Shown here piece by piece: positions 9,663-42,732 of a stretch of DNA of 42,865 bases. This DNA is from Chloroflexota bacterium (lineage in GTDB: Bacteria; Chloroflexota; Anaerolineae; JAYEMR01): assembly GCA_034718215.1 (NCBI GenBank), contig JAYEMR010000111.1, positions 1 to 42,865 on the forward strand. Reading direction: 5' to 3'. Under the pieces are notes generated by a model. The model saw only the letters and a list, made by a program, of their open reading frames with translations, made no database searches and had not been told where the DNA came from. Each line of letters starts with the position of its first letter. Within the stretch, counting starts at the first letter, position 1. A program made the translations under genes and the position numbers.

Positions 9663-10616
9663 TCAGCCCTCCAAGGTGAGCCAGCTCCTGTCTGCCGAAC
9701 AGGCAGGTAAGTCCCCCTCGGACATCCGCCCCTCCAAGAACCGTCGAGTCTGGGCCAGATTGGGGATCCCCGTTCGACCGCCCAGCTTCGTGCACTTGAG
9801 GGCTGCCACTGCCGAGGAGAAGAGCATCAATCGGCGGGGCGTCCACCCTCGCGCGACGCCGTAGGCGAAAGCGCCGTGGAAGACATCCCCTGCCCCGGTT
9901 GTGTCAACTGCTTCCACCTCAAAAGCTGGTATTTCCTCAATCTTCCCGTTGGCCAGGTAGATAGCTCCCTGCGGGCCCATGGTGATGGCAACCATCCGCG
10001 CTCCGAATCCACTAAGCGCCTTCAACGCCTCTGGCCCGGCCGAGCCAGCGATCTCCTCGGCAGCATGTCGGGGCACCACCAGGTAATCGATGAGCTCCAG
10101 GAGCTCCTCGTTGCCAGCGATATGGCCGATGTCACCGCAGGTGGGCACGCCCTTCTCGCGGGCTCGTGAGAGCCCCTTGAGCGCCCAAGGCTTCCAGAAC
10201 CCATCCACCAGCAGCGAGTCAGCCGAGTCAATGCGTGACCAGTCGCGCTCAACCTCCAGCCAGCTCGGCTGCCAGTCTGAGCCTGGTGACAGAAAGACTC
10301 GCTCTCCGGTGCGCCCATCCACCAGCACGAAGTTGAAGGGGCTGGCATGACCGGCAAGACGAACTATCTGGCTCAGATCAACGCCCTCTTGTAGCAGTTC
10401 CTCCTCGATGAGCCGGCCATGGTGATCCTCTCCGACCACGTTCCACAGCTCCGCGCGCCCGCCCAGCCGGGCTACGGCGACCATGGCTGTGGCTACTAAC
10501 CCACCGCCCTGCATCTTGAAGTCCTCCAGCCGACAGCCGCGGTGCACTGTGCGAAGATCGGGCACCCGCAGCAGGTAATCCAAACAAGCCAGACCAATAC
10601 CGATCACTTTGACCAT
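9663..10616 (-). CDS. PfkB family carbohydrate kinase
   Basis: GGGLVATAMVAVARLG and the DTTGAGDVFHG signature. Confidence 0.88.
   Translation of the reverse strand: MVKVIGIGLACLDYLLRVPDLRTVHRGCRLEDFKMQGGGLVATAMVAVARLGGRAELWNVVGEDHHGRLIEEELLQEGVDLSQIVRLAGHASPFNFVLVDGRTGERVFLSPGSDWQPSWLEVERDWSRIDSADSLLVDGFWKPWALKGLSRAREKGVPTCGDIGHIAGNEELLELIDYLVVPRHAAEEIAGSAGPEALKALSGFGARMVAITMGPQGAIYLANGKIEEIPAFEVEAVDTTGAGDVFHGAFAYGVARGWTPRRLMLFSSAVAALKCTKLGGRTGIPNLAQTRRFLEGRMSEGDLPACSADRSWLTLEG
9687..9707. repeat. 21-bp CCTG...CAGG palindromic element, in frame in the pfkB 3' end
   Basis: CCTGTCTG-CCGAA-CAGGCAGG. Its arms are identical to the termini of the 66-bp element; it encodes PACSADR. Confidence 0.75.
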
Positions 10617-10811
10617 GATACCAGTCCCCTGTTCTTCTTCACCCAAGGCTTGAGTCGGTTCTCTGCTAACTTCTGGCGCACGGCCTCACGTTACAACCCG
10701 CAGTTCGACCAGTTTGTCGCCCAAGAGTTGTAGCGTCCAGCATTTCCGGCCCGCTCACTACGTACCAGCGCCATCAGAACCGCTTCTCCCCTCTGGTCCA
10801 GTTTCCCTTGA

Positions 10812-19722: not shown

Positions 19723-19727
19723 TCCCT

Positions 19728-19814
19728 CCTGCCTGAGCACCCGTGCCTGCCCGCACCTGATCGAGTACAGGTGATCGGGTACAGGCAGACAGGACAGGCA
19801 GGCAGGGGACAGGC
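19728..19814 (-). repeat. 66-bp CCTG...CAGG element (19728-19793) plus adjacent CAGG-rich half elements
   Basis: Reverse complement differs from 42615-42680 at only 2 positions. Confidence 0.9.
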
Positions 19815-23253: not shown

Positions 23254-24024
23254 ATGGGAAAAACAACAGAGACCCTGGAGCGCCCTTCTGCCTGTCCCCC
23301 GCCTGTGCGGACAGGTGCCTGCGCCCAGTGCCTCCTGCCTGCGCAGACAGGGGACAGGCGCCTACCTGCGGGGGCAGGAGACAGGACCCGATCCCTTACA
23401 GGACAGGCAGGCACGGGTGAGCAGATGGCTGTGCAAGAGCCTCGCTGGGCCACAGAGATAGCACAACTTTGGTCGCCCCAGGGCCAGTGGACGGAGGAGG
23501 AGTACTTCTCCCTGCCGGACACTAATCGGCTGGTCGAGCTTTCAGAAGGAGAGTTGATCATGCCACCTCATCCGACATATAGTCACCAAGTCGCTGTAGG
23601 TGAATTGTACACTGCCCTTCGGAGCTTTGTGCATCAGCATGGCCTGGGGACTGTCCTGCTTGCGCCCTTGCCAGTGCGACTGTGGCCTGGTAAGATCCGA
23701 GAGCCAGATATCTTTTTCATATCCCAGGAGCACAGCGATCGCATCGGCGAACAGGCATGTGGCCCACCGGACCTGGTCGTGGAAGTGCTCTCCCCGGCTA
23801 CCTGGCGCACGGACAGGCGGGAGAAGATGGTGGAATATGCTCAGGCTGGCATTCAAGAATGCTGGATTGTGGACCCGGACGAATGCACCGTCGAGGTCTT
23901 CGTCCTCCGTGAAGGGGCATATGTGTTTCTGGGCAAGTGGGGCGCTGATCAAACAGCTCGTTCCGAGAAGCTCCCTGGTTTCGAGATCTCTGTGGACGCG
24001 ATTTTCTTCCATAACGGTGATTAA
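23254..24024 (+). CDS. Uma2 family (PD-(D/E)xK) endonuclease with an in-frame repeat insertion near the N-terminus
   Basis: WTEEEYFSLP, ELSEGEL, REPDI, PDLVVEVLSP, DRREK..EY, WIVDP. ATG 23254 follows AGGTGA; alternative start at 23425. Confidence 0.88.
   Translation: MGKTTETLERPSACPPPVRTGACAQCLLPAQTGDRRLPAGAGDRTRSLTGQAGTGEQMAVQEPRWATEIAQLWSPQGQWTEEEYFSLPDTNRLVELSEGELIMPPHPTYSHQVAVGELYTALRSFVHQHGLGTVLLAPLPVRLWPGKIREPDIFFISQEHSDRIGEQACGPPDLVVEVLSPATWRTDRREKMVEYAQAGIQECWIVDPDECTVEVFVLREGAYVFLGKWGADQTARSEKLPGFEISVDAIFFHNGD
23284..23427 (+). repeat. About 144-bp multiply nested CCTG...CAGG composite
   Basis: Ends match the 66-bp element (cttctgcctgt | acccgatc...ggcaggcacgggtgagcag), with further CCTG/CAGG hairpins inserted at the T^A step. 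Confidence 0.8.
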
Positions 24025-32984: not shown

Positions 32985-34775
32985 ATGCTGGCCGAACTGA
33001 CCATCCGTGACTTCGCGATCATAGATGAGCTTCACCTCACCTTAGGCCCAGCTTTCAACGTCTTGACCGGTGAGACTGGCGCCGGCAAATCCATTATCGT
33101 CGATGCGGTGAGCTTGCTCATGGGTGGATGGGCCACTAGGGAGGTCATCCGCAGCGGCGCAGACCGCGCTCTCATCGAGGGGATATTCTACTTGGAGCCA
33201 AAGCTGCAAGCTGAGGTCAATCCCCTCTTGGCCAGCGATGGACTGGAGGGCGATGACCCCTCCACCCTCAGCCTGGCCCGCGAGATCCAGCGAAAAAAAC
33301 GGAATATCTGCCGGATCAACGGGCGGGCGGTGACATTGTCGGCGCTGGAGGCCGTCGGCCGGCGGCTTGTTGACATCCACGGCCAGAGCGGCCATCTCTC
33401 GCTGCTGCGGGCGCGGGAGCACATTGATTTCCTGGATCGCTACGGAGGGCTGTGGCCCCAGCGGAGGAAGCTGGCGGCCAAAGTCGAGGCGCTGCGGCAG
33501 GTGCGGGAGGAGCTGACTAATCTGAGGCGTGACGAGCGGGAGCTGGCCCGCCGAGTGGACCTTTTGGAATACCAAGTGCAGGAGATCAACGCCGCCGGGC
33601 TGGTTATGGGAGAAGAGGAGGAGCTGCGGGCGGAGCGCACCAGGCTAGCCAACGCCGAGCGACTGCTCACCCTGGCGGAGACGGCCTATCAGTCCCTCTC
33701 CTCCTCTACGGTCAGACAGGACACCGCTGAGGAGGGTCGCCCCGGCGCCTATGACCTTCTGGGGGAGACAATAAAGTCTCTCTCTCAGTTGGTGGAGATT
33801 GACCCCAGCTTGAACGAGGTGTTGCAGGCAGCGGAGGAGCTGAGCTACCGGCTGGAGGATATAATTACCACCGTGCGGGACTACAGAGAGAGTGTGGAAT
33901 ACAATCCCCGTCGTTTGACGCAGGTTGAGGAGCGGTTGAGCCTCGTTCAGGGCCTGAAGCGTAAGTATGGCGATTCAATTGAGGAGATCCTGGCCTTTGG
34001 GCAGCGGGCGGAGGAGGAGCTGGACTCCATCGCCCACAGCGAGGAGCGGATCGAGGAGCTGCGAGCTCAAGAAGAAAAGCTGCTGCGGGAGATAGGGGAG
34101 CTGGGAGCGGTCTTATCTGAGGCGCGTCGCCAAGCCGCCGATGGGTTGAAGGCCAAAGTGGAGAGGGAGCTGGCGGGCCTCTCGATGGGGGACGCTAGAT
34201 TCGACGTTTCCATCGAGCAGCGGGAGGACGCCGAGGGTGCCTGGGCGCCGGCGCCTTTTAGGGCGACGGGCCAGCGTCTGGCCTTCGATCGCACGGGGAT
34301 TGACCACGTGGAGTTCCTCATCTCACCCAACGTGGGCGAGCCGCTCAAGCCGCTGGCGAGCGTGGCCTCCGGCGGCGAGACCTCGCGGCTCATGCTGGCT
34401 CTCAAGACTGTCCTCTCCATGGCCGATGAGACTCCCACCCTCATCTTCGACGAGATTGACGCCGGCATTGGAGGGCGGGTGGGAGAGGTGGTGGGCTACA
34501 AGCTGTGGAGCCTGACCCCTGAGCATCAGGTGCTTTGCGTCACCCACCTGCCGCAGCTGGCAGCCTATGGAGACGCCCACTTCCGTGTGGCCAAGTCAGT
34601 AGTGGGCCGGCGCACCGTGGCCGGCGTCGAGCCGCTCGATGCCGAAGAGCGCATCACAGAGCTAGCGGTCATGCTCGGCGCTGACCGACCTGAGACGCGC
34701 CACAGCGCGGAGGCGATGTTGGCAGAGATAGAGCGGGAGAAGGGCGAGCGGGGCGAGAAAGCCACCCGACGATGA
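32985..34775 (+). CDS. recN: DNA repair protein RecN
   Basis: TGETGAGKS, DIHGQ, ASGGETSR, FDEIDAGIGG, VTHLPQ. Confidence 0.96.
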   Translation: MLAELTIRDFAIIDELHLTLGPAFNVLTGETGAGKSIIVDAVSLLMGGWATREVIRSGADRALIEGIFYLEPKLQAEVNPLLASDGLEGDDPSTLSLAREIQRKKRNICRINGRAVTLSALEAVGRRLVDIHGQSGHLSLLRAREHIDFLDRYGGLWPQRRKLAAKVEALRQVREELTNLRRDERELARRVDLLEYQVQEINAAGLVMGEEEELRAERTRLANAERLLTLAETAYQSLSSSTVRQDTAEEGRPGAYDLLGETIKSLSQLVEIDPSLNEVLQAAEELSYRLEDIITTVRDYRESVEYNPRRLTQVEERLSLVQGLKRKYGDSIEEILAFGQRAEEELDSIAHSEERIEELRAQEEKLLREIGELGAVLSEARRQAADGLKAKVERELAGLSMGDARFDVSIEQREDAEGAWAPAPFRATGQRLAFDRTGIDHVEFLISPNVGEPLKPLASVASGGETSRLMLALKTVLSMADETPTLIFDEIDAGIGGRVGEVVGYKLWSLTPEHQVLCVTHLPQLAAYGDAHFRVAKSVVGRRTVAGVEPLDAEERITELAVMLGADRPETRHSAEAMLAEIEREKGERGEKATRR

Positions 34776-34812
34776 AGTCGTCGGGCTACGAAGCAGCGGG
34801 TGATAAATCACT

Positions 34813-34932
34813 CTCACCCGCACCTGCTCGGGTCCTGTCTGCCTGTACCCGCCCGCGACTGCCCGTGCGCAGGCGATCACCTGTGCCCAATCAGGTGCGG
34901 GCAGGCACGGGTGCGCAGGAAGGACAGGTGAG
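34813..34932 (+). repeat. Nested composite: 66-bp element (34834-34923) carrying an extra 24 bp, inside a CACCTG...CAGGTG hairpin
   Basis: 18 bp + 24-bp insert (34852-34875) + 48 bp align to 42615-42680. Confidence 0.85.
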
Positions 34933-34964
34933 CCCTGGTTGCGCAGGTATTCAGCGGCAGAAAA

Positions 34965-35009
34965 GCCCGATTCACCTGTGCCTGATCAGGTGCAGGCATC
35001 GGGCGCTGC
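34965..35009. repeat. REP-like hairpin GCCCGATTCATCGGGC interrupted by a 22-bp CCTG...CAGG unit with CA duplication
   Basis: gcccgatt-CA-[cctgtgcctgatcaggtgcagg, 34975-34996]-CA-tcgggc. Confidence 0.75.
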
Positions 35010-35026
35010 TCAGTAGCTGGGCGATT

Positions 35027-38000
35027 TCATCGCCCAGTGGTTGCTCTGCGCACACCCAGGGTAATGCGATCCCCCTCCAGCTCGAAGCTTTGGACATAGG
35101 CCCTCGGCGGCGATGGTCCCTCCACCAGGTCGAGTGAGAGTGTCTCGGCCTGGATGTAGGCCGCCTGTTCCGGGTCCTCCATGACCTCAGCCAGTTGCCC
35201 CTCCGCCTGATAGTAGGTGGTGATGCGGTCCTCGATATTGAAGTCGGCCCTCTTGCGCATGTTTTGGATGCGGCGCACCAGATCTCGGGCCAGCCCCTCC
35301 CGCTCCAGCTCCGGCGTCAGGCGAGTGTCCACAGCCACGATGATGCCTCGCTCCTCGGCCACAGCATAGCCCTCACGAGCATGGGTGCGCACCTCCACCT
35401 CCTCCGGCAGCAGCTCAATGGATTGATCCTCCACCTGGATGGCTATCGGCACCCCAGCCTCAACCCGCTGGGCCAACTGCTCAGCGTCCATGCCCGCTAC
35501 TGCCTTCTGCATTTTGGGGAACAATGAGCCATACTTGGGCCCCAGCAGCTGAGGGAGCAGATGGGTCTCGTAGCTCACCAACTCTCCCGCCCGCTCCACA
35601 AAATCCAACCTTTTGACATTCAACTCATCCATTATGATCGCCGACAGCCGATCCAGGCGCTGTCGCTCGCTCTCACTGGCCAGCACCCGCGCTCGGGCCA
35701 AGGGCTGACGCAGTTTCAGGCCCGCTTGAGAGCGCGCCGAACGGCCCAGGCTGGCCGCTCGGATAGCCAGCTCCACGTCCCTCGCTAACTCCTCATCAAT
35801 GAGCGATTCATCGGCCACTGGCCAGTCGTTGTGGTGCACACTCTCCGGAGCCTTCTCATCCGTGGAGCGCACCAGATTCTGATACATCGCCTCTACGAAG
35901 AAGGGTGTGAAGGGAGCCAGAACCTTGCACAGTGTGGTCAGCACCCTGTAGAGCGTGCGATAGGCGGCGTCTTTGTCCGCGTCCTGTTCGCTCTTCCAGA
36001 ATCGGCGGCGGGAACGGCGCACGTACCAGTTGCTCAATTCGTCAATGAAGGCCTCGATGGGAGCGGTGGCTCCATAGACATCGTAGTCGTCAAGGTGCTC
36101 AGTGACCTTCTGTACCAGCACTTGAAGCTCGGAGAGGATCCATCTATCGAGTAATGAGTAACGCCTGCACCCGTGGCGCAGGCACAGGTGAGTCAATGGG
36201 TCAGCCTTCGTTACCCCACCCGGCTCCCAGCCGTCAATGTTGGCGTAGGTCACGAAGAAGGAGTAGACATTCCAAAGGGGGATCAGGAAGCGCCGTCGCG
36301 TCTCATCGGCCAGGGCGTAGCCGAAGCGGAGGTCTTTCTCGGGCCGGTGGGAGCAGAACATCCAGCGCATCACATCCACTCCCATGTTCTCAGCCGCCTC
36401 ATCGAACCAGATGGCGTTGCCCCAGCTTTTGTGCATCTGCCGGCCATCCTCCGCCAGGAGCAGGGCGTAGGAGAAGACATTGCGGAAGGGAGCCTTACGC
36501 TCCATGATAGTGCTCATAGCCAGGAGGGAGTAGAACCAGTTTCGGAATTGAAGCAGGAAGGTCTCGCTGATTAGATCAGCGGGGAACCATTTCTCCCAGT
36601 ACTGGCGGTCGCGGTGGTAATTCAAGGTGGAAAAAGCCACGATTCCCGCGTCCAGCCAGGGATTTCCCACGTCGGGAACGCGGGAGGCGGGAGTTCCGCA
36701 CTTCGGGCAGCGGATCTTCACCGCATCTATCCAAGGGCGGTGAGGAGAATGCCCCTCGAACTCCTCCCAGCCCTCGACGGCCCGCTCTTTAAGTTCCTCC
36801 TTGCTGCCGATGACGGTGAAATGGCCGCACTTTGGGCACTCCCAGATGGGCAGGGCTAAGCCCCAGTAACGTTTCTTGGAGATCATCCAGTCCTGCATGT
36901 TGCGCAGCCAGTCCATCTCCCGGTCGAAGCCGAAGCTCGGAATCCAGCGGGTATTCTGCATCACCTCCATGATCTGATAGCGGAGGTTGCGCTTTTTCTC
37001 CTCCTCGGTCACCTCCTCGTAGCCCTTGTCCAGCTGATCGCCCATGTCAATGAACCACTCATCCACCAGACGAAATACCAGCTCCGTGCCGCAGCGCCAG
37101 CAGACGGGATAGCGGTGGGTGTAATCCTCCACTTTGTACAGCAGCCCCTTGCGTTCCAAGTCCTCGAAGATAGGCTCTGCGACCTCGGCCACATTTAGGC
37201 CCGTGAGCCAGTCGAACCCATTGATGAAGACTCCGGACTCGTCCAACGGCGCGAGCACAGGCAGGTCGTGTTCCTTGCTGAGCTCAAAGTCCTCAGCGCC
37301 GCAGCCAGGCGCGATGTGGACCACGCCCGTGCCCTCCTCCTCGCTCACCTCGTCCCATAGGATCACGCGATGGGGATAGGGACGCTCCTGCTCCTGGGCA
37401 ACCGCCAGGGTTGCCCCTACGGCGGGTAACTCATCGAAGGGCCCATCGTAGGCCCAGTCCTCCAGCGCCCTCCCCGGCATCTCCGCCAGCACCTCGTAGT
37501 CGCCGTCCAGGATGTGTAACGTGCCCTTGCAGAGGTAGAGGATCTCATCGTTATGGCGGACCTTGACGTAGGTCAGGTCGGGGCCGACGGCGGCAGCGAC
37601 GTTGGAGGTGAGGGTCCAGGGGGTGGTGGTCCACACCAGAAGCGATTCGTTTTGACGAGCTCGGAGGGGGAATCGCAAGGTGATGCTGGGGTGAGTCAGC
37701 TCCTGGTAGCCCTCGGTGACAATTTCGTGCTGGCTGATCCCAGTGCCGCAGCGGGGGCACCAGGGCATTACATCGTGGCCTTTGTAGATCCAGCCCTGTT
37801 CATGGCACTTCTTGAGGGCCTCCCAGATGTGGTAGTTGTTATCATCAGAGAAGGTGAAGTAGGATCCTCCAAGCTCGGGGGTGCCCAGCCGCCCGACGAT
37901 CTGCTCCACCGTGCCGGCCACCTTGCCTCGGGTCCCCTGGACGCTGATAACCTGCTCCGGGTCTTCCTCCATCTTATCCCGTAGCCAGCGCAGGAAATCG

Positions 38001-38440
38001 GGGTCATTCCAGTCCATCCAATATCCCAGCCGCTGAGATTGCTCGGTCTGCACGGCAGCATATTTGAGCGCCCGCTGTTTGCAGAGGTTGACGAAGGGGC
38101 CGATGCCGTAGGCTTCGATATCGCGCTTGGACTCGAAACCCAACTCCTTTTCCACCTCCACCTCGACCCACAGCCCTTGGCAGTCGAAGCCATTCTGGTA
38201 GCGGGTGTCGTAGCCTTTCATGGCCCAGTAGCGGTGGAAGAGATCCTTGTAGGTGCGGCCCCAGGCGTGATGCGTGCCCATGGGATTGTTGGCTGTAATG
38301 GGGCCATCAATGAAGGACCAGCGCTCGTTGCCTTGGTTCAACTCCCGGCGCTTCTCAAAAGCCTCGCTTTCCTCCCACCACTTTAAGATTTCTCTTTCCT
38401 GAGCCACGAAATCAACGTGAGTTGGCACCTCTTTGAACAT
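35027..38440 (-). CDS. ileS: Isoleucine--tRNA ligase, type 2 (GxHH signature)
   Basis: DGPITAN..GTHH, GFDCQGL, WTTTPWTL editing motif, GTGVVHIAPG, DWMISKKRYWG, QMHKS, LSNWYVRRSRRRFW, EGLARDLVRRIQ. Confidence 0.96.
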   Translation of the reverse strand: MFKEVPTHVDFVAQEREILKWWEESEAFEKRRELNQGNERWSFIDGPITANNPMGTHHAWGRTYKDLFHRYWAMKGYDTRYQNGFDCQGLWVEVEVEKELGFESKRDIEAYGIGPFVNLCKQRALKYAAVQTEQSQRLGYWMDWNDPDFLRWLRDKMEEDPEQVISVQGTRGKVAGTVEQIVGRLGTPELGGSYFTFSDDNNYHIWEALKKCHEQGWIYKGHDVMPWCPRCGTGISQHEIVTEGYQELTHPSITLRFPLRARQNESLLVWTTTPWTLTSNVAAAVGPDLTYVKVRHNDEILYLCKGTLHILDGDYEVLAEMPGRALEDWAYDGPFDELPAVGATLAVAQEQERPYPHRVILWDEVSEEEGTGVVHIAPGCGAEDFELSKEHDLPVLAPLDESGVFINGFDWLTGLNVAEVAEPIFEDLERKGLLYKVEDYTHRYPVCWRCGTELVFRLVDEWFIDMGDQLDKGYEEVTEEEKKRNLRYQIMEVMQNTRWIPSFGFDREMDWLRNMQDWMISKKRYWGLALPIWECPKCGHFTVIGSKEELKERAVEGWEEFEGHSPHRPWIDAVKIRCPKCGTPASRVPDVGNPWLDAGIVAFSTLNYHRDRQYWEKWFPADLISETFLLQFRNWFYSLLAMSTIMERKAPFRNVFSYALLLAEDGRQMHKSWGNAIWFDEAAENMGVDVMRWMFCSHRPEKDLRFGYALADETRRRFLIPLWNVYSFFVTYANIDGWEPGGVTKADPLTHLCLRHGCRRYSLLDRWILSELQVLVQKVTEHLDDYDVYGATAPIEAFIDELSNWYVRRSRRRFWKSEQDADKDAAYRTLYRVLTTLCKVLAPFTPFFVEAMYQNLVRSTDEKAPESVHHNDWPVADESLIDEELARDVELAIRAASLGRSARSQAGLKLRQPLARARVLASESERQRLDRLSAIIMDELNVKRLDFVERAGELVSYETHLLPQLLGPKYGSLFPKMQKAVAGMDAEQLAQRVEAGVPIAIQVEDQSIELLPEEVEVRTHAREGYAVAEERGIIVAVDTRLTPELEREGLARDLVRRIQNMRKRADFNIEDRITTYYQAEGQLAEVMEDPEQAAYIQAETLSLDLVEGPSPPRAYVQSFELEGDRITLGVRRATTGR
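36162..36190. repeat. In-frame CCTG...CAGG element inside ileS
   Basis: Minus strand CA-[cctgtgcctgcgccacgggtgcagg]-CG, 25+2 = 27 bp, encoding HLCLRHGCR(R); shares CACGGGTGC with the 66-bp element. Confidence 0.75.
37396..37420 (-). repeat. GTAG-type REP in frame inside ileS
   Basis: GTAG-GGGCAACC-CTGGC-GGTTGCCC: GTAG tetranucleotide plus a perfect 8-bp stem. Confidence 0.7.
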
Positions 38441-38542
38441 GCTTCTCCTCCTATTAACAACGAGCTCACAACGGACTGGAGAATCAAACAGACGAAGCCT
38501 ATCCGTGCAGATGGGCTTGCCCATGCGGACGGAAAAGCCCGT

Positions 38543-38570
38543 TTGACAAAACGCTCATAAAGACTACAAT
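38543..38570 (+). promoter_or_regulatory. Toxin-antitoxin module promoter
   Basis: TTGACA-16-TACAAT. Confidence 0.6.
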
Positions 38571-38603
38571 ATACACAGTATGCACAAGGGAAAGGGGAAT
38601 CAA

Positions 38604-38888
38604 ATGGCGATCTTAGCGCGTGCGATCTACAAAAAAGGGGTTCTGCATCCCAAAGAGCCGCTTGACATAGGTGAGCAAGCGGAAGTTGAGCTCCTTATCT
38701 TCCCCATCAGACAAGACACGCTGGCTGATGTGCTGGGTTTTGATCCAAGCGATACAAAAGCCCTAGCAGCCTCGGCTGAGCGCCATCGTCGGGCGATTCT
38801 ACGCATGGCTGGTACTGCCAGCAGTGATGAGCCCCACGACGGCTCGGTTCATCACGATAGATACATCTACACGGCAAGCTGGCGATGA
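38604..38888 (+). CDS. DUF104/AF2212-like antitoxin
   Basis: AIYKKGVLHPKEPLDIGEQAEV N-terminus; S..HDRYIY C-terminus typical of VapB-type partners. Confidence 0.78.
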   Translation: MAILARAIYKKGVLHPKEPLDIGEQAEVELLIFPIRQDTLADVLGFDPSDTKALAASAERHRRAILRMAGTASSDEPHDGSVHHDRYIYTASWR

Positions 38889-39304
38889 CCAAAGAACTAG
38901 CCTTCGTTGATACCAGCGCATGGTTTGCCATAAAGGATGCCCAGGATCAATATCACGCAGCGGCTATAGGTTTTCTGGCCGATTTCCAGGGCGACTTTGT
39001 GACCAGCAACTTTGTGATTGATGAAACCATTACTCTGGTACTCGTGCGATTGGGGTATTGGGCTGCCTTGGGGGTAGGTGAACAGCTTTGGAAAGGCAAA
39101 TTAGCACACAACGTGCGGATCACTGAAGACGACGAACGAGCTGCCTGGGAGCTCTTCAAGCGATACTCGGATAAAGGATTCTCCTTCACCGACTGCCCCA
39201 GCTTTGCGGTCATGGAGCGATTAGAGCTCCGCCGAGCCTTTGCTTTTGATGAAAATTTCTCGCAGACTGGCCAATTCTTACGCGTTCCCCGGTTGCAGGA
39301 ATAA
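38885..39304 (+). CDS. vapC: PIN-domain VapC toxin
   Basis: FVDTSAW, VIDET, FSFTD, AFDENF; ATGA overlap with the antitoxin. Confidence 0.88.
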   Translation: MTKELAFVDTSAWFAIKDAQDQYHAAAIGFLADFQGDFVTSNFVIDETITLVLVRLGYWAALGVGEQLWKGKLAHNVRITEDDERAAWELFKRYSDKGFSFTDCPSFAVMERLELRRAFAFDENFSQTGQFLRVPRLQE

Positions 39305-39387
39305 CAGCGGACTACAGAACTAGATAGACTAGAATTCAACGAACTTTCAGTCAGTTAAATTCCTCGGTCCGTTGTTGGCATCCTCTG

Positions 39388-39924
39388 CTAGTGCCCCAGT
39401 ACCTCCTCGATCTCCCCTCGTTCCTTCTCCTCAAAGGAAACGCTCCCGAAGCTGCGAACTATTTTCCGCACGCGATCCCGGCGCTGGAGCATCCGTGGCT
39501 CTCTGGCCTTCCACACCCCGGTTACCTGGTTGATCACCAGCCGGCTGTCGCCCTGCACTGTGACCTCGCATTGTTGAGGATCGGCACCCAGGGCGGTGAG
39601 CCGGCCGCGTAAGTCCTCCAAGGCATGGATCAGGGCCTCGTACTCCGCCTCGTTGTTGGTCATCCTCCCCCCGAACTCTAGGTGCACCACCTGAGGCAGC
39701 TCATCACTAAATTGGAGAGCGTAGCTTCCATAGCCGGGGCCGGGATTTACCCGGCTGCCGCCGTCAAAGAGGACCTTCGGCTGCCAAGCCTTGCCAGCAC
39801 CCCCATCGCGGGAGGACAGAAGGCGCTGAAAAGGAGGCCAATCGGCTAGTTGAGCGAAGAGCCAGCGCCGGTCGTTATCAGAGAGGGCGCGGATGGATTT
39901 CCATATCTCACGGACGTCTTCCAC
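39388..39924 (-). CDS. Ribonuclease HI family protein with N-terminal extension
   Basis: FDGGSRVNPG, TNNEAEYEAL, GDSRLVINQVTGVWK. Confidence 0.85.
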   Translation of the reverse strand: MEDVREIWKSIRALSDNDRRWLFAQLADWPPFQRLLSSRDGGAGKAWQPKVLFDGGSRVNPGPGYGSYALQFSDELPQVVHLEFGGRMTNNEAEYEALIHALEDLRGRLTALGADPQQCEVTVQGDSRLVINQVTGVWKAREPRMLQRRDRVRKIVRSFGSVSFEEKERGEIEEVLGH

Positions 39925-39938
39925 TTATCTCCTCCACT

Positions 39939-40256
39939 AAAAAGCCCTCGCCCCTTAAGGGATAAGGGACGAGGGCTCTCATACTTCTACCCCCGCGGTA
40001 CCACCCTCCTACCTGACGACAGACAGGATTGCCCCGTCTAGCAGGGCCACTCTGTGGGGTACGCATCCATACCCCCGTCTGGATAACGGTGGACGAGGCC
40101 GGCTGAGCTTACTTGCTGGCTGGCCGTGCTATCTGCCATTCGTCAGCGTTCAGTCAGCAGCTCTGGGAGGATTTTCGACAACAACTCGTCACCTGGCTTT
40201 CACCATCCCAGGCTCGCTGTCACGAGGTGATGTTGCTTACTCATTCCCATCATCGC
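39939..40256 (-). promoter_or_regulatory. T-box riboswitch, Ile specifier (AUC at 40172-40170), with intrinsic terminator
   Basis: GA motif, AGUA, AGCGAG / GGUGAAA, GAAA-AUC specifier loop, CCGUUA, T-box AGGGUGGUACCGCG, terminator stem 39943-39977 followed by a U-tract. Confidence 0.92.
40008..40027. repeat. 20-bp CCTG...CAGG-family element inside the T-box leader
   Basis: CCTACCTG-ACGA-CAGACAGG at a T^A step, directly 5' of the T-box sequence on the minus strand. Confidence 0.65.
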
Positions 40257-40290
40257 TTGTATAAAAGATGATAGCGCAGTGAGAAAACCG

Positions 40291-41172: not shown

Positions 41173-41420
41173 TGGCTTAGCTCACTGTAAAGACAAACCA
41201 CCAGGCTTCAGATACCCGATAGAAAACCCCGCCATGCCGTGTGCCAAGAGGTTTTGACCCTGTTTATAAAGTGGGGTGCTGCCCCAAGCACATACCGCTG
41301 TACTCAGGAACTAACTCCCCGATCTCATAGGTGTTAGCTCAAACCATATGGGCATCACGAACATAGCAGGGCATTTGTAGTATACCACAAAATTCCAAAG
41401 CGCGCGAGTGAGCTAAGCCA
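41173..41420. repeat. Perfect 14-bp inverted repeat (41173-41186 / 41407-41420) bracketing the 6S RNA gene and its promoter
   Basis: TGGCTTAGCTCACT / AGTGAGCTAAGCCA. Confidence 0.85.
41226..41373 (-). ncRNA. ssrS: 6S RNA
   Basis: Closing stem CCCUGCUAUGUUCGUG ... CACGGCAUGGCGGGG, internal UUUGAGC, GGGAG, CACCCCAC and GGGUCAAA blocks with a central bubble; upstream TG-G-TATACT (41379-41387). Ends approximate. Confidence 0.8.
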
Positions 41421-42521: not shown

Positions 42522-42732
42522 CAGCTGGTGATTACCCACATCTCACCTGTACCAGGTACTGGCAGATTCGAGGCTGAGGCGTCCTCGCCGAAACTGTTCC
42601 CCTGTCCGTCGGACCCTGTCTGCCTGTACCCGATCACCTGTACCCGATCAGGTGCGGGCAGGCACGGGTGCGCAGGCAGGAGACGGGATGGCCAGCATAC
42701 CCCTCGGCGGGGAAGCCTCGTTCCTCTTGTTG
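42522..42732. repeat. Repeat B, filled copy with an 87-bp nested insertion (42601-42687)
   Basis: Aligns to 16379-16503. The insert is a 21-bp palindrome split by the 66-bp element (42615-42680). Confidence 0.9.

Follow-up and report, generated by a model that had tools for sequence, protein, structure and literature searches.

Single-stranded DNA of repetitive extragenic palindromes (REPs) is cut by REP-associated tyrosine transposases (RAYTs, or TnpAREP), HUH nucleases that act on each side of the hairpin at CT, or at CA in Marinomonas; where they cut is set by a guide at the base of the REP hairpin, so that an altered guide gives an altered site, and in the IS200/IS605 family a guide next to the hairpin pairs to choose the cleavage sites (PMC8266576). 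Earlier work has described REPs inside genes and, in the Chloroflexi species T. roseum, REPs nested within other palindromes (PMC3733652), as well as Rickettsia palindromic elements (RPEs), palindromic repeats that sit in frame within functional protein genes (cited in PMC3733652), while REP singlets have been regarded as immobile remnants of REPIN doublets (PMC3116915). The small dispersed repeats (SDR1-8) of Nostocaceae are described as possibly mobile sequences of ~20-27 nt, both dispersed and tandem (PMC2884548), and SDR5 has been described as inserted base-precisely in another short palindrome, HIP1 (PMC4390886). Here we describe units of 18-24 nt with the general form CCTG...CAGG in a 42,865-nucleotide contig of an Anaerolineae bacterium (Chloroflexota), hereafter the window, where they crowd the spacer that separates a recN-like gene from ileS (34813-35009). 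The evidence assembled below suggests that they are probably recent, mobile, non-coding palindrome-like units of two classes, the first of which (class 1, 24 nt added between repeated dinucleotides) would be moved by an HUH nuclease, the second (class 2) being blunt units of 18-22 nt.

With REPs, the bacterial interspersed mosaic elements (BIMEs) and their RAYTs these units share a short imperfect palindrome (20-40 nt in REPs), a high copy number (here 132 copies of class 1 and 195 of class 2 in 1.9 Mb), an arrangement in mosaics and the presence of G-T pairs on one strand. At the level of sequence, the CA that stands on both sides of 99 of the 132 class 1 copies resembles the CT or CA at which RAYTs cleave on both hairpin sides (PMC8266576). 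They differ from REPs in carrying no GTAG/CGTC tag and in flanking no RAYT gene, in lying within called genes in 39% of copies and without 3'-end bias, whereas REPs are extragenic and mostly downstream of genes, in that the inserted piece is a single unit and not a REPIN doublet, and in a pairing that is interleaved and not a plain hairpin. An apparently strand-specific, single-stranded insertion 3' of a short target, without duplication, recalls IS200/IS605 and the palindrome-associated transposable elements (PATEs); unlike IS200/IS605, where the left and right ends have hairpins of their own and targets are tetra- or pentanucleotides, a single 24-nt piece here would need to supply both ends, and the genome gave no TnpA or TnpB of that family apart from three RAYT-like genes. 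RPEs are ~100-150 bp long, unlike the present units, which are of 18-24 nt and nested in each other. By size and behaviour the closest analogue is the SDRs of Nostocaceae, compared here by second-hand description: units of 18-24 nt, dispersed and tandem, nested, precisely inserted and without coding capacity. SDRs belong to another phylum and are apparently unrelated in sequence. Elhai et al., writing on them in 2008 (Genome Res 18:1484), reportedly observed nesting, with no mobilising gene known.

Class 1 units, their flanks and the empty sites of a congener

The window is contig C111 of an assembly (G000) of 1.9 Mb in 147 contigs, with 59.5% G+C and a completeness of 87%; coordinates prefixed with C (for example C72:6235) refer to contigs of this assembly and unprefixed ones to the window. 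The genome compared with it, G001, belongs to the same genus and shares ~80% nucleotide identity. Genes were called with a simple codon-usage picker of open reading frames (ORFs), a rough tool, which returned 1607 genes and 85% coding DNA.

Class 1 units consist of a 22-nt core, CCYG-YR-CCYG-AT-CRGG-YR-CRGG, and a 2-nt repeat, and add 24 nt. A degenerate consensus allowing ≤2 mismatches found 132 sites in G000, and the same dinucleotide stands on both flanks in 114 of these (CA in 99, CG in 10, TG in 4 and TA in 1). The 22-mer CCTGTGCCTGATCAGGTGCAGG has 23 exact copies in the genome, flanked by CA/CA in 22 cases and by CG/CG in one. The earlier note on this DNA had described 2-bp CA or CG brackets around some units; these are found both in the window (CA at 34973-34998, CG at 34850-34875) and genome-wide, where 99 CA/CA and 10 CG/CG copies make up most of the 132. 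Orientation was set by internal bases only, taking the strand on which mismatched stem positions read as G-T. On that basis class 1 is strand-specific and has one orientation (99 CA/CA vs 4 TG/TG), because a double-stranded target duplication at CA/TG would give CA and TG equally.

Among solo copies (64 unique contexts) the wider target is approximately TYCA|RR. A site of this kind, ATCA|GG, lies at the centre of the class 1 unit itself, which explains both self-nesting and the 14-nt/10-nt arm repeats. The flank dinucleotide follows the internal variant: the variant CCCG..TG..CAGG has CG/CG flanks in 9 of 10 copies, drawn from 7 distinct contexts, and CG/CA in the remaining one, while its one-base neighbour is flanked by CA/CA in 9 contexts and by TG/TG in 2. 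The simpler idea that the flank equals a fixed internal dinucleotide was rejected, since no single rule fits every class 1 variant.

The units are inserted elements: wherever both flanks could be aligned, the congener has an empty site, with a gap of exactly the expected size. G001 is empty at C72:6235 (a 24-nt gap in a 1506-codon gene) and at C6:15832 and C6:17613 (24-nt gaps, one in a gene and one at the 3' end of another), and in all three a single CA/TG stands at the point of entry. Further gaps are found at C108:37534 (24 nt), C67:1707 (42 nt) and C147:28857 (18 nt), at the unit at 40008 in the window (20 nt, the empty site reading CCCT|ATTT within a T-box leader) and at 42601-42687, where the flanks match across a gap of 87 nt. 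An automated comparison of 43 blocks left 9 that could be aligned, none of them filled in G001; the other 34 have no alignable orthologous site, and at C6:16464 and C108:36138 flank identity was too low to read. The reverse comparison, of sites filled in the metagenome contigs of relatives, gave 0 clean 24-nt gaps in G000 in 13 comparisons, the sites being in poorly conserved spacers. In four public sequencing runs, represented by assembled contigs only, no contig spans an element, the breaks falling at 34788/34995 and 42553.

The distribution of the units is narrow. The exact 26-mer, present 52 times in G000, is absent from 300 other genomes of the class; degenerate 22-mer sites number 112 in G000, 3 in G001, 2 in G013 and 0 in 28 other relatives; and an exact 18-mer of class 2 has 54 sites in G000 and 0 in 30 relatives. 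Sixteen metagenome loci, 12 of which align to G000 at 78-88% identity, hold 17 more class 1 units, every one flanked by CA/CA and located at a site other than those in G000. No class 2 unit was found across the 86 kb of relatives' metagenome contigs that carry the 24-nt unit. The two classes therefore have different histories, since the relatives' contigs hold class 1 yet no class 2, and these comparisons point to a recent, lineage-limited burst of unit expansion.

Called genes contain 51 of the 132 class 1 copies (39%), which are found there in either orientation and in each of the three frames; where the frame would read TGA through CCTGATCA, only variants with CGA or CAA at that place occur. 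Intergenic copies lie between convergent genes in 15 cases, divergent genes in 19 and co-directional genes in 36, with no 3'-end bias, and a tandem array of units is present at C110:2715-2784. A role at the RNA level, as terminator or stabiliser, was considered as the reason for the units and is unsupported, there being no orientation bias relative to transcription.

A simple palindrome was also rejected for the 22-mer: across 45 sequence types the pairs of a plain hairpin are mostly T-G or C-A. Pairing follows instead an interleaved a-b-a'-b' scheme, in which flank plus CCYG pairs with CRGG plus YR, and YR plus CCYG with CRGG plus flank. Watson-Crick pairing amounts to 92% and 88% in the two interleaved 6-bp stems, flanks included, vs 66% for the simple palindrome. 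Compensatory changes are seen at two key pairs among the 45 types (T-A 29, C-G 14, other 2; and C-G 21, T-A 18, other 6), and an 18-mer type of class 2, CCTGTCCGCACAGGCGGG, has the same a-b-a'-b' layout. Folding of the unit at 34973-34998 on the plus strand predicts a 9-bp hairpin of -6 kcal/mol.

Blunt class 2 units and nested blocks

Class 2 comprises CCTGYCTG...CAGRCAGG units of 18-22 nt, of which 195 copies were catalogued in G000 after scripted removal of class 1 units. By copy, 101 are of 18 nt, 24 of 19 nt, 52 of 20 nt, 11 of 21 nt and 4 of 22 nt. The 18-mer CCTGTCTGCGCAGGCAGG appears ~58 times after class 1 removal, with 54 sites as an intact 18-mer; CCTGTCCGCACAGGCGGG is a second 18-mer type. 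In the window, the motif CCTGYCTG occurs 20 times vs 6.6 expected, a count reached in 0 of 100 shuffles.

Junctions of class 2 fall between a pyrimidine and A in 90 of the 195 copies vs 9.4% expected, and in 27 of the 83 copies in unique solo contexts; copies are not independent, composites having been amplified as wholes, and p-values on copy counts therefore overstate the effect. There is no target duplication: the flanks share 0 bases in 56 of the 83 solo copies and 1 base in 19, and solo flank identity is no higher than chance. Where the host is a 22-mer, it reads CCTGT|ACCCG, with the 18-mer exactly between T and A. The two junction signatures recognised earlier in the window thus extend to the genome, as a repeated dinucleotide in class 1 (114/132) and a pyrimidine^A step in class 2. 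The base after solo class 2 units often opens a purine run (AAAG, AGAG, GGAG), which together with the ...CAGG end yields Shine-Dalgarno-like AGGAG strings.

Both classes insert in the loop regions of their own and of the other class, giving blocks of 42, 66, 87 and 90 nt. All blocks of the window decompose cleanly: 66 = 18 + 24 + 24, 87 = 21 + 66 and 90 = 18 + 3 x 24. The elements of the window are the following.

34817..34833, minus strand: left portion of the 22-nt host unit CCCGCACCTGCTCGGGT, an inverted repeat read from the sequence; the remainder, ACAGG, is at 34924-34928
34834..34923, plus strand: 90-nt nested block, by our own decomposition, checked against scripted peeling of units
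34973..34998, plus strand: solo class 1 unit, CA + CCTGTGCCTGATCAGGTGCAGG + CA, net addition 24 nt
42601..42687, plus strand: 87-nt block, a 21-nt shell (42601-42614 + 42681-42687) round a 66-mer at 42615-42680 (18 + 24 + 24)
19728..19793, minus strand: 66-nt block (18 + 24 + 24) between tsaD and an E2 acyltransferase gene, T^A junction 19727/19794
40008..40027, plus strand: 20-nt class 2 unit CCTACCTGACGACAGACAGG, blunt at T^A (40007/40028) within the T-box leader
9687..9707, plus strand: 21-nt class 2 unit, in frame and with a T^T junction, at the 3' end of a pfkB-family kinase gene (9663-10646, minus strand)
36163..36189, plus strand: 27-nt CCTG...CAGG element inside ileS, with a 96% copy elsewhere in G001
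23298-23315, plus strand: intact 18-nt unit CCCGCCTGTGCGGACAGG, from the genome unit catalogue
23334-23351, plus strand: intact 18-nt unit CCTGCCTGCGCAGACAGG, from the genome unit catalogue

In the spacer next to recN the host unit CCCGCACCTGCTCGGGT is interrupted at T^A (34833/34924) by the 90-nt block. The outer 18-nt shell of this block is formed by 34834-34841 and 34914-34923, and within it lies a 24-nt unit divided into three pieces (34842-34851, 34876-34879 and 34904-34913) by the two innermost 24-nt units, one inserted at CG (34852-34875) and one at CA (34880-34903); the stretch 34850-34875 reads CG + 22 nt + CG. The 87-nt block is blunt at C^A (42600/42688), as is the 66-mer inside it (42614/42681). 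These two junctions, the T^A junctions of the 66-nt block at 19727/19794 and of the 20-nt unit at 40007/40028, and the pfkB copy as a T^T exception of 21 nt all agree with the earlier note. The T^A that it gave at 34833/34924 also holds, with a length of 90 nt that its list of net additions lacked, and the 28-bp exception that it placed inside the 66-mer is unneeded once that block is read as 18 + 24 + 24. Its statement that the 66-mer is free of stops in all three forward frames is correct; stops occur in two of the three reverse frames. The 27-nt element of ileS is extra in G000 relative to G001, yet G001 has an extra 24-nt segment of its own 16 nt away, so that this event is not clean.

The surroundings of these elements include the following genes and RNAs.

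32985..34775, plus strand: recN-like gene, its last codons and stop within another dispersed repeat (34760-34833)
35027..38524, minus strand: ileS, convergent with recN
39962-40262, minus strand: T-box (RF00230), 87.2 bits vs a gathering score of 93, and so missed at curated thresholds
41222-41375, minus strand: 6S RNA, Rfam, 61.6 bits

Rfam at gathering thresholds over the window gave nothing beyond the 6S RNA. The 20-nt unit of the T-box leader adjoins the conserved AGGGUGGUACCGCG box. The RecN-like protein is closest to one from an uncultured Anaerolineae (Chloroflexota) at 79% identity, the next standing at ~62%. The region 34813-35009 is part of the 251-nt spacer that separates the convergent recN and ileS, and self-comparison of the genome shows this spacer to consist entirely of short dispersed repeats, which make up ~2.2% of G000.

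Several further repeats were observed nearby. The one that covers the end of recN (34760-34833) contains a terminator-like hairpin (CCCGACGA..TCGTCGGG), with further copies on C139, C104, C132, C99 and C3. The 98 nt at 34934-35031, comprising the solo unit and the final bases of ileS, are duplicated at C3:17222-17319 with 95% identity and may be present there as the relic copy of a gene end. From the start of ileS to an RNase H-like gene (39388-39924) there are ~860 nt in G000 (38525-39390) and ~160 nt in G001, and the extra segment of G000 contains an ORF at 38885-39304 on the plus strand. Another hairpin repeat, CACCTGTACCAGGTACTGG, is found at 42536-42560, C140:7210, C55:14030 and C132:8319; its tandem arrays have a period of 19 nt, which is not a multiple of 3.

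Movement, lengths and candidate enzymes

The features of class 1, namely flanking CAs, restriction to one strand, a piece of 24 nt and a variant retargeted to CG, fit the trace that a RAYT-like reaction would leave. Class 1 would move as single-stranded hairpin DNA: a trans-acting, strand-specific nuclease of the HUH (Y1) type, like RAYTs or IS200-IS605 enzymes, would cut after the CA on each side of the hairpin, and the 24-nt piece would be pasted after another existing CA (rarely CG), preferably at TYCA|RR, so that CA comes to stand on both sides. Class 2 would enter without duplication, preferably between a pyrimidine and A, which would need a second activity or a different cut geometry. 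An HUH mechanism is the most likely one for class 1, with the chances for and against it about evenly balanced, and no cognate gene was found. The different distributions of the classes also fit two activities, a suggestion that the earlier note had made in the form of two mobilising chemistries, without proving them.

Three RAYT-like HUH genes are present in G000, with scores of 101.8, 88.2 and 47.2 bits against NF047646 (cut-off 80, two above it), and the closest solved relative of their products is TnpAREP 4er8. They are listed here with the one other transposase candidate discussed below.

C32:20297-21010: RAYT-like HUH gene with GTAG-tagged flanking hairpins
C76:3690-4500: RAYT-like HUH gene with GTAG-tagged flanking hairpins
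C105:8100-8830: RAYT-like HUH gene below the cut-off, with hairpins AACCTGTCAGGT that resemble terminal inverted repeats and are confined to C105
C144:30815-32122, minus strand: IS701-like putative transposase gene at the contig end, NF041680 408 bits vs a cut-off of 440

The GTAG-tagged hairpins of G000 belong to other, small families. The C105 gene apparently lies within a duplicated stretch of a neighbouring gene. No RAYT was found next to units in the 16 metagenome loci, the RAYT proteins of G000 had no match among the Y1 loci of G001 or G021, and the G000 assembly, which is 87% complete, gave no TnpB, IS110 or serine recombinase; a cognate gene could be among the missing part.

A number of observations weigh against HUH-mediated movement as set out above. 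The units flank none of the three RAYT-like genes, each of which has hairpins of its own; G024 (77%) and G010 (64%), two genomes that lack the 22-mer, encode close homologues of the C32 gene; and the GTAG/CGTC tag is absent from either strand of the 26-mer and the 18-mer. One class 1 unit type is found in the same CA in both orientations (12 vs 2), and there is no orientation bias relative to genes, with 30 vs 21 copies in genes and 17 vs 19 between co-directional genes. A single 26-nt strand cannot form both interleaved stems at once, and the folding of single units is weak (z -0.7 to -1.7). Finally, class 2 units lack a shared end motif and are a poor fit to a single-guide HUH reaction.

A fuller model, which we regard as unlikely, joins structure and movement. 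The 24-nt unit would be the full substrate for a guide-directed 'peel and paste': it would leave as a single-stranded circle in which its one CA closes stems a-a' and b-b', it would carry its own guide for both cuts and for the choice of target, and a base change in the element would retarget it from CA to CG. The enzyme would not be a classical GTAG-reading RAYT and is possibly of a new kind, and a separate second activity would move the blunt 18-22-nt units.

The alternative that survives best, although unlikely, is the one put forward in the earlier note, which held that the elements are shaped by selection for harmlessness in genes, being multiples of three and stop-free, and that HUH enzymes move the blunt class while another chemistry moves the CA/CG class. 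Multiples of three do dominate by copies, with 182 units of 24 nt and 101 of the 195 class 2 units at 18 nt. Among 273 top-level blocks they account for 67 of the 79 that lie deep in genes, 28 of the 39 at gene edges and 99 of the 155 between genes, so that the claimed excess even in intergenic copies is real when copies are counted. It rests on the lengths 24 and 18 and their sums. It disappears when class 2 is counted by sequence type: those with at least 5 copies comprise three types at 18 nt, two at 19 nt and four at 20 nt, which makes 3 of 9 multiples of three, as expected by chance, and among intergenic single units 20-mers (29) exceed 18-mers (22). The bias is thus no general rule but a by-product of 24 and 18 nt being the most successful lengths. 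An unbiased k-mer search for empty/filled pairs returned 1083 events, 626 of them multiples of 3 vs 230 and 227, and was not used as a test because it is contaminated by coding-DNA tandem repeats, whose lengths are naturally multiples of three, and by artefacts of the 14/10-nt arms of nested units.

Selection is visible as a filter. Class 2 units deep in genes and between genes number 31 vs 25 for lengths that are multiples of three and 11 vs 44 for other lengths. This in-gene excess is the work of purifying selection and does not imply a design for harmlessness. In a genome that is ~85% coding only stop-free units with lengths in multiples of three would persist, and the same filter may also lie behind such types becoming the most numerous. 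The presence of ~40% of copies in called genes, in every open frame and in both orientations, also speaks for selection for harmlessness, which the class 2 type lengths leave unshown. As for the enzymes, insertion of the IS200/IS605 type is generally known to leave no duplication, which would suit the blunt class. Pairing that class with HUH is nevertheless probably the wrong way round, because blunt entry without a shared end motif misfits a single-guide HUH reaction, whereas the CA...CA class matches published RAYT cleavage.

Quite improbable is a reading of class 1 as a minimal MITE (miniature inverted-repeat transposable element) that is transposed in double-stranded form by a DDE transposase whose 2-bp staggered cut at CA leaves a true 2-bp duplication. 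It would account for the equal flank dinucleotides (114/132) and for the single copy at empty sites, the two 11-nt halves are inverted repeats, and there is one IS701-like DDE gene, at the end of C144, whose ends are not in the assembly. A symmetric element at the asymmetric target CA/TG would be expected in both orientations, in contrast with the 99 vs 4 observed, and 22 bp offers no space between two transposase-bound ends. The dependence of the flank dinucleotide on the internal variant is likewise unlike a target duplication, class 2 has no duplication, and the duplications made by IS701 elements are of 4-5 bp.

Still less probable is that no dedicated enzyme is involved and that replication switches templates between hairpin-forming repeats, with CA as junction microhomology. 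That class 1 junctions share 2 nt, that units nest in the loops of other copies and that no cognate transposase was found in G000 would be in keeping with this, but unit ends are base-exact at >100 unrelated sites, class 2 is without any microhomology, and neither the TYCA|RR preference nor the fixed orientation would be expected. That the units are immobile binding or structural motifs, such as terminators or protein sites, maintained in place by selection, is very improbable: the focal spacer does lie between convergent genes, where terminators are expected, and some copies lie within terminator-like hairpins, but the empty orthologous sites of G001 contradict it, as do the copies in essential genes in both orientations, the lack of any preference for convergent spacers (15, vs 19 divergent and 36 co-directional) and the species-limited burst.

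Significance for small mobile DNA

Because contigs break at these repeats, and the T-box leader that holds one of them falls below its Rfam threshold, the units call for caution in annotation and metagenome assembly. Where they lie in frame, for instance in ileS, pfkB and large conserved genes, they add 6, 8, 14 or 22 residues and so provide ready-made tolerated loop insertions. The CA...CA signature, together with the CG-retargeted variant, is a natural match to RAYT behaviour so far shown only in vitro. REPIN doublets and MITEs of at least 70 bp are, to our knowledge, the smallest DNA commonly accepted as mobile, single REPs being thought immobile. Single units of 18-24 nt with clean empty sites in a congener offer natural evidence on the lower size limit of mobile DNA, and by sequence comparison they appear to be among the smallest mobile-looking DNA elements known.

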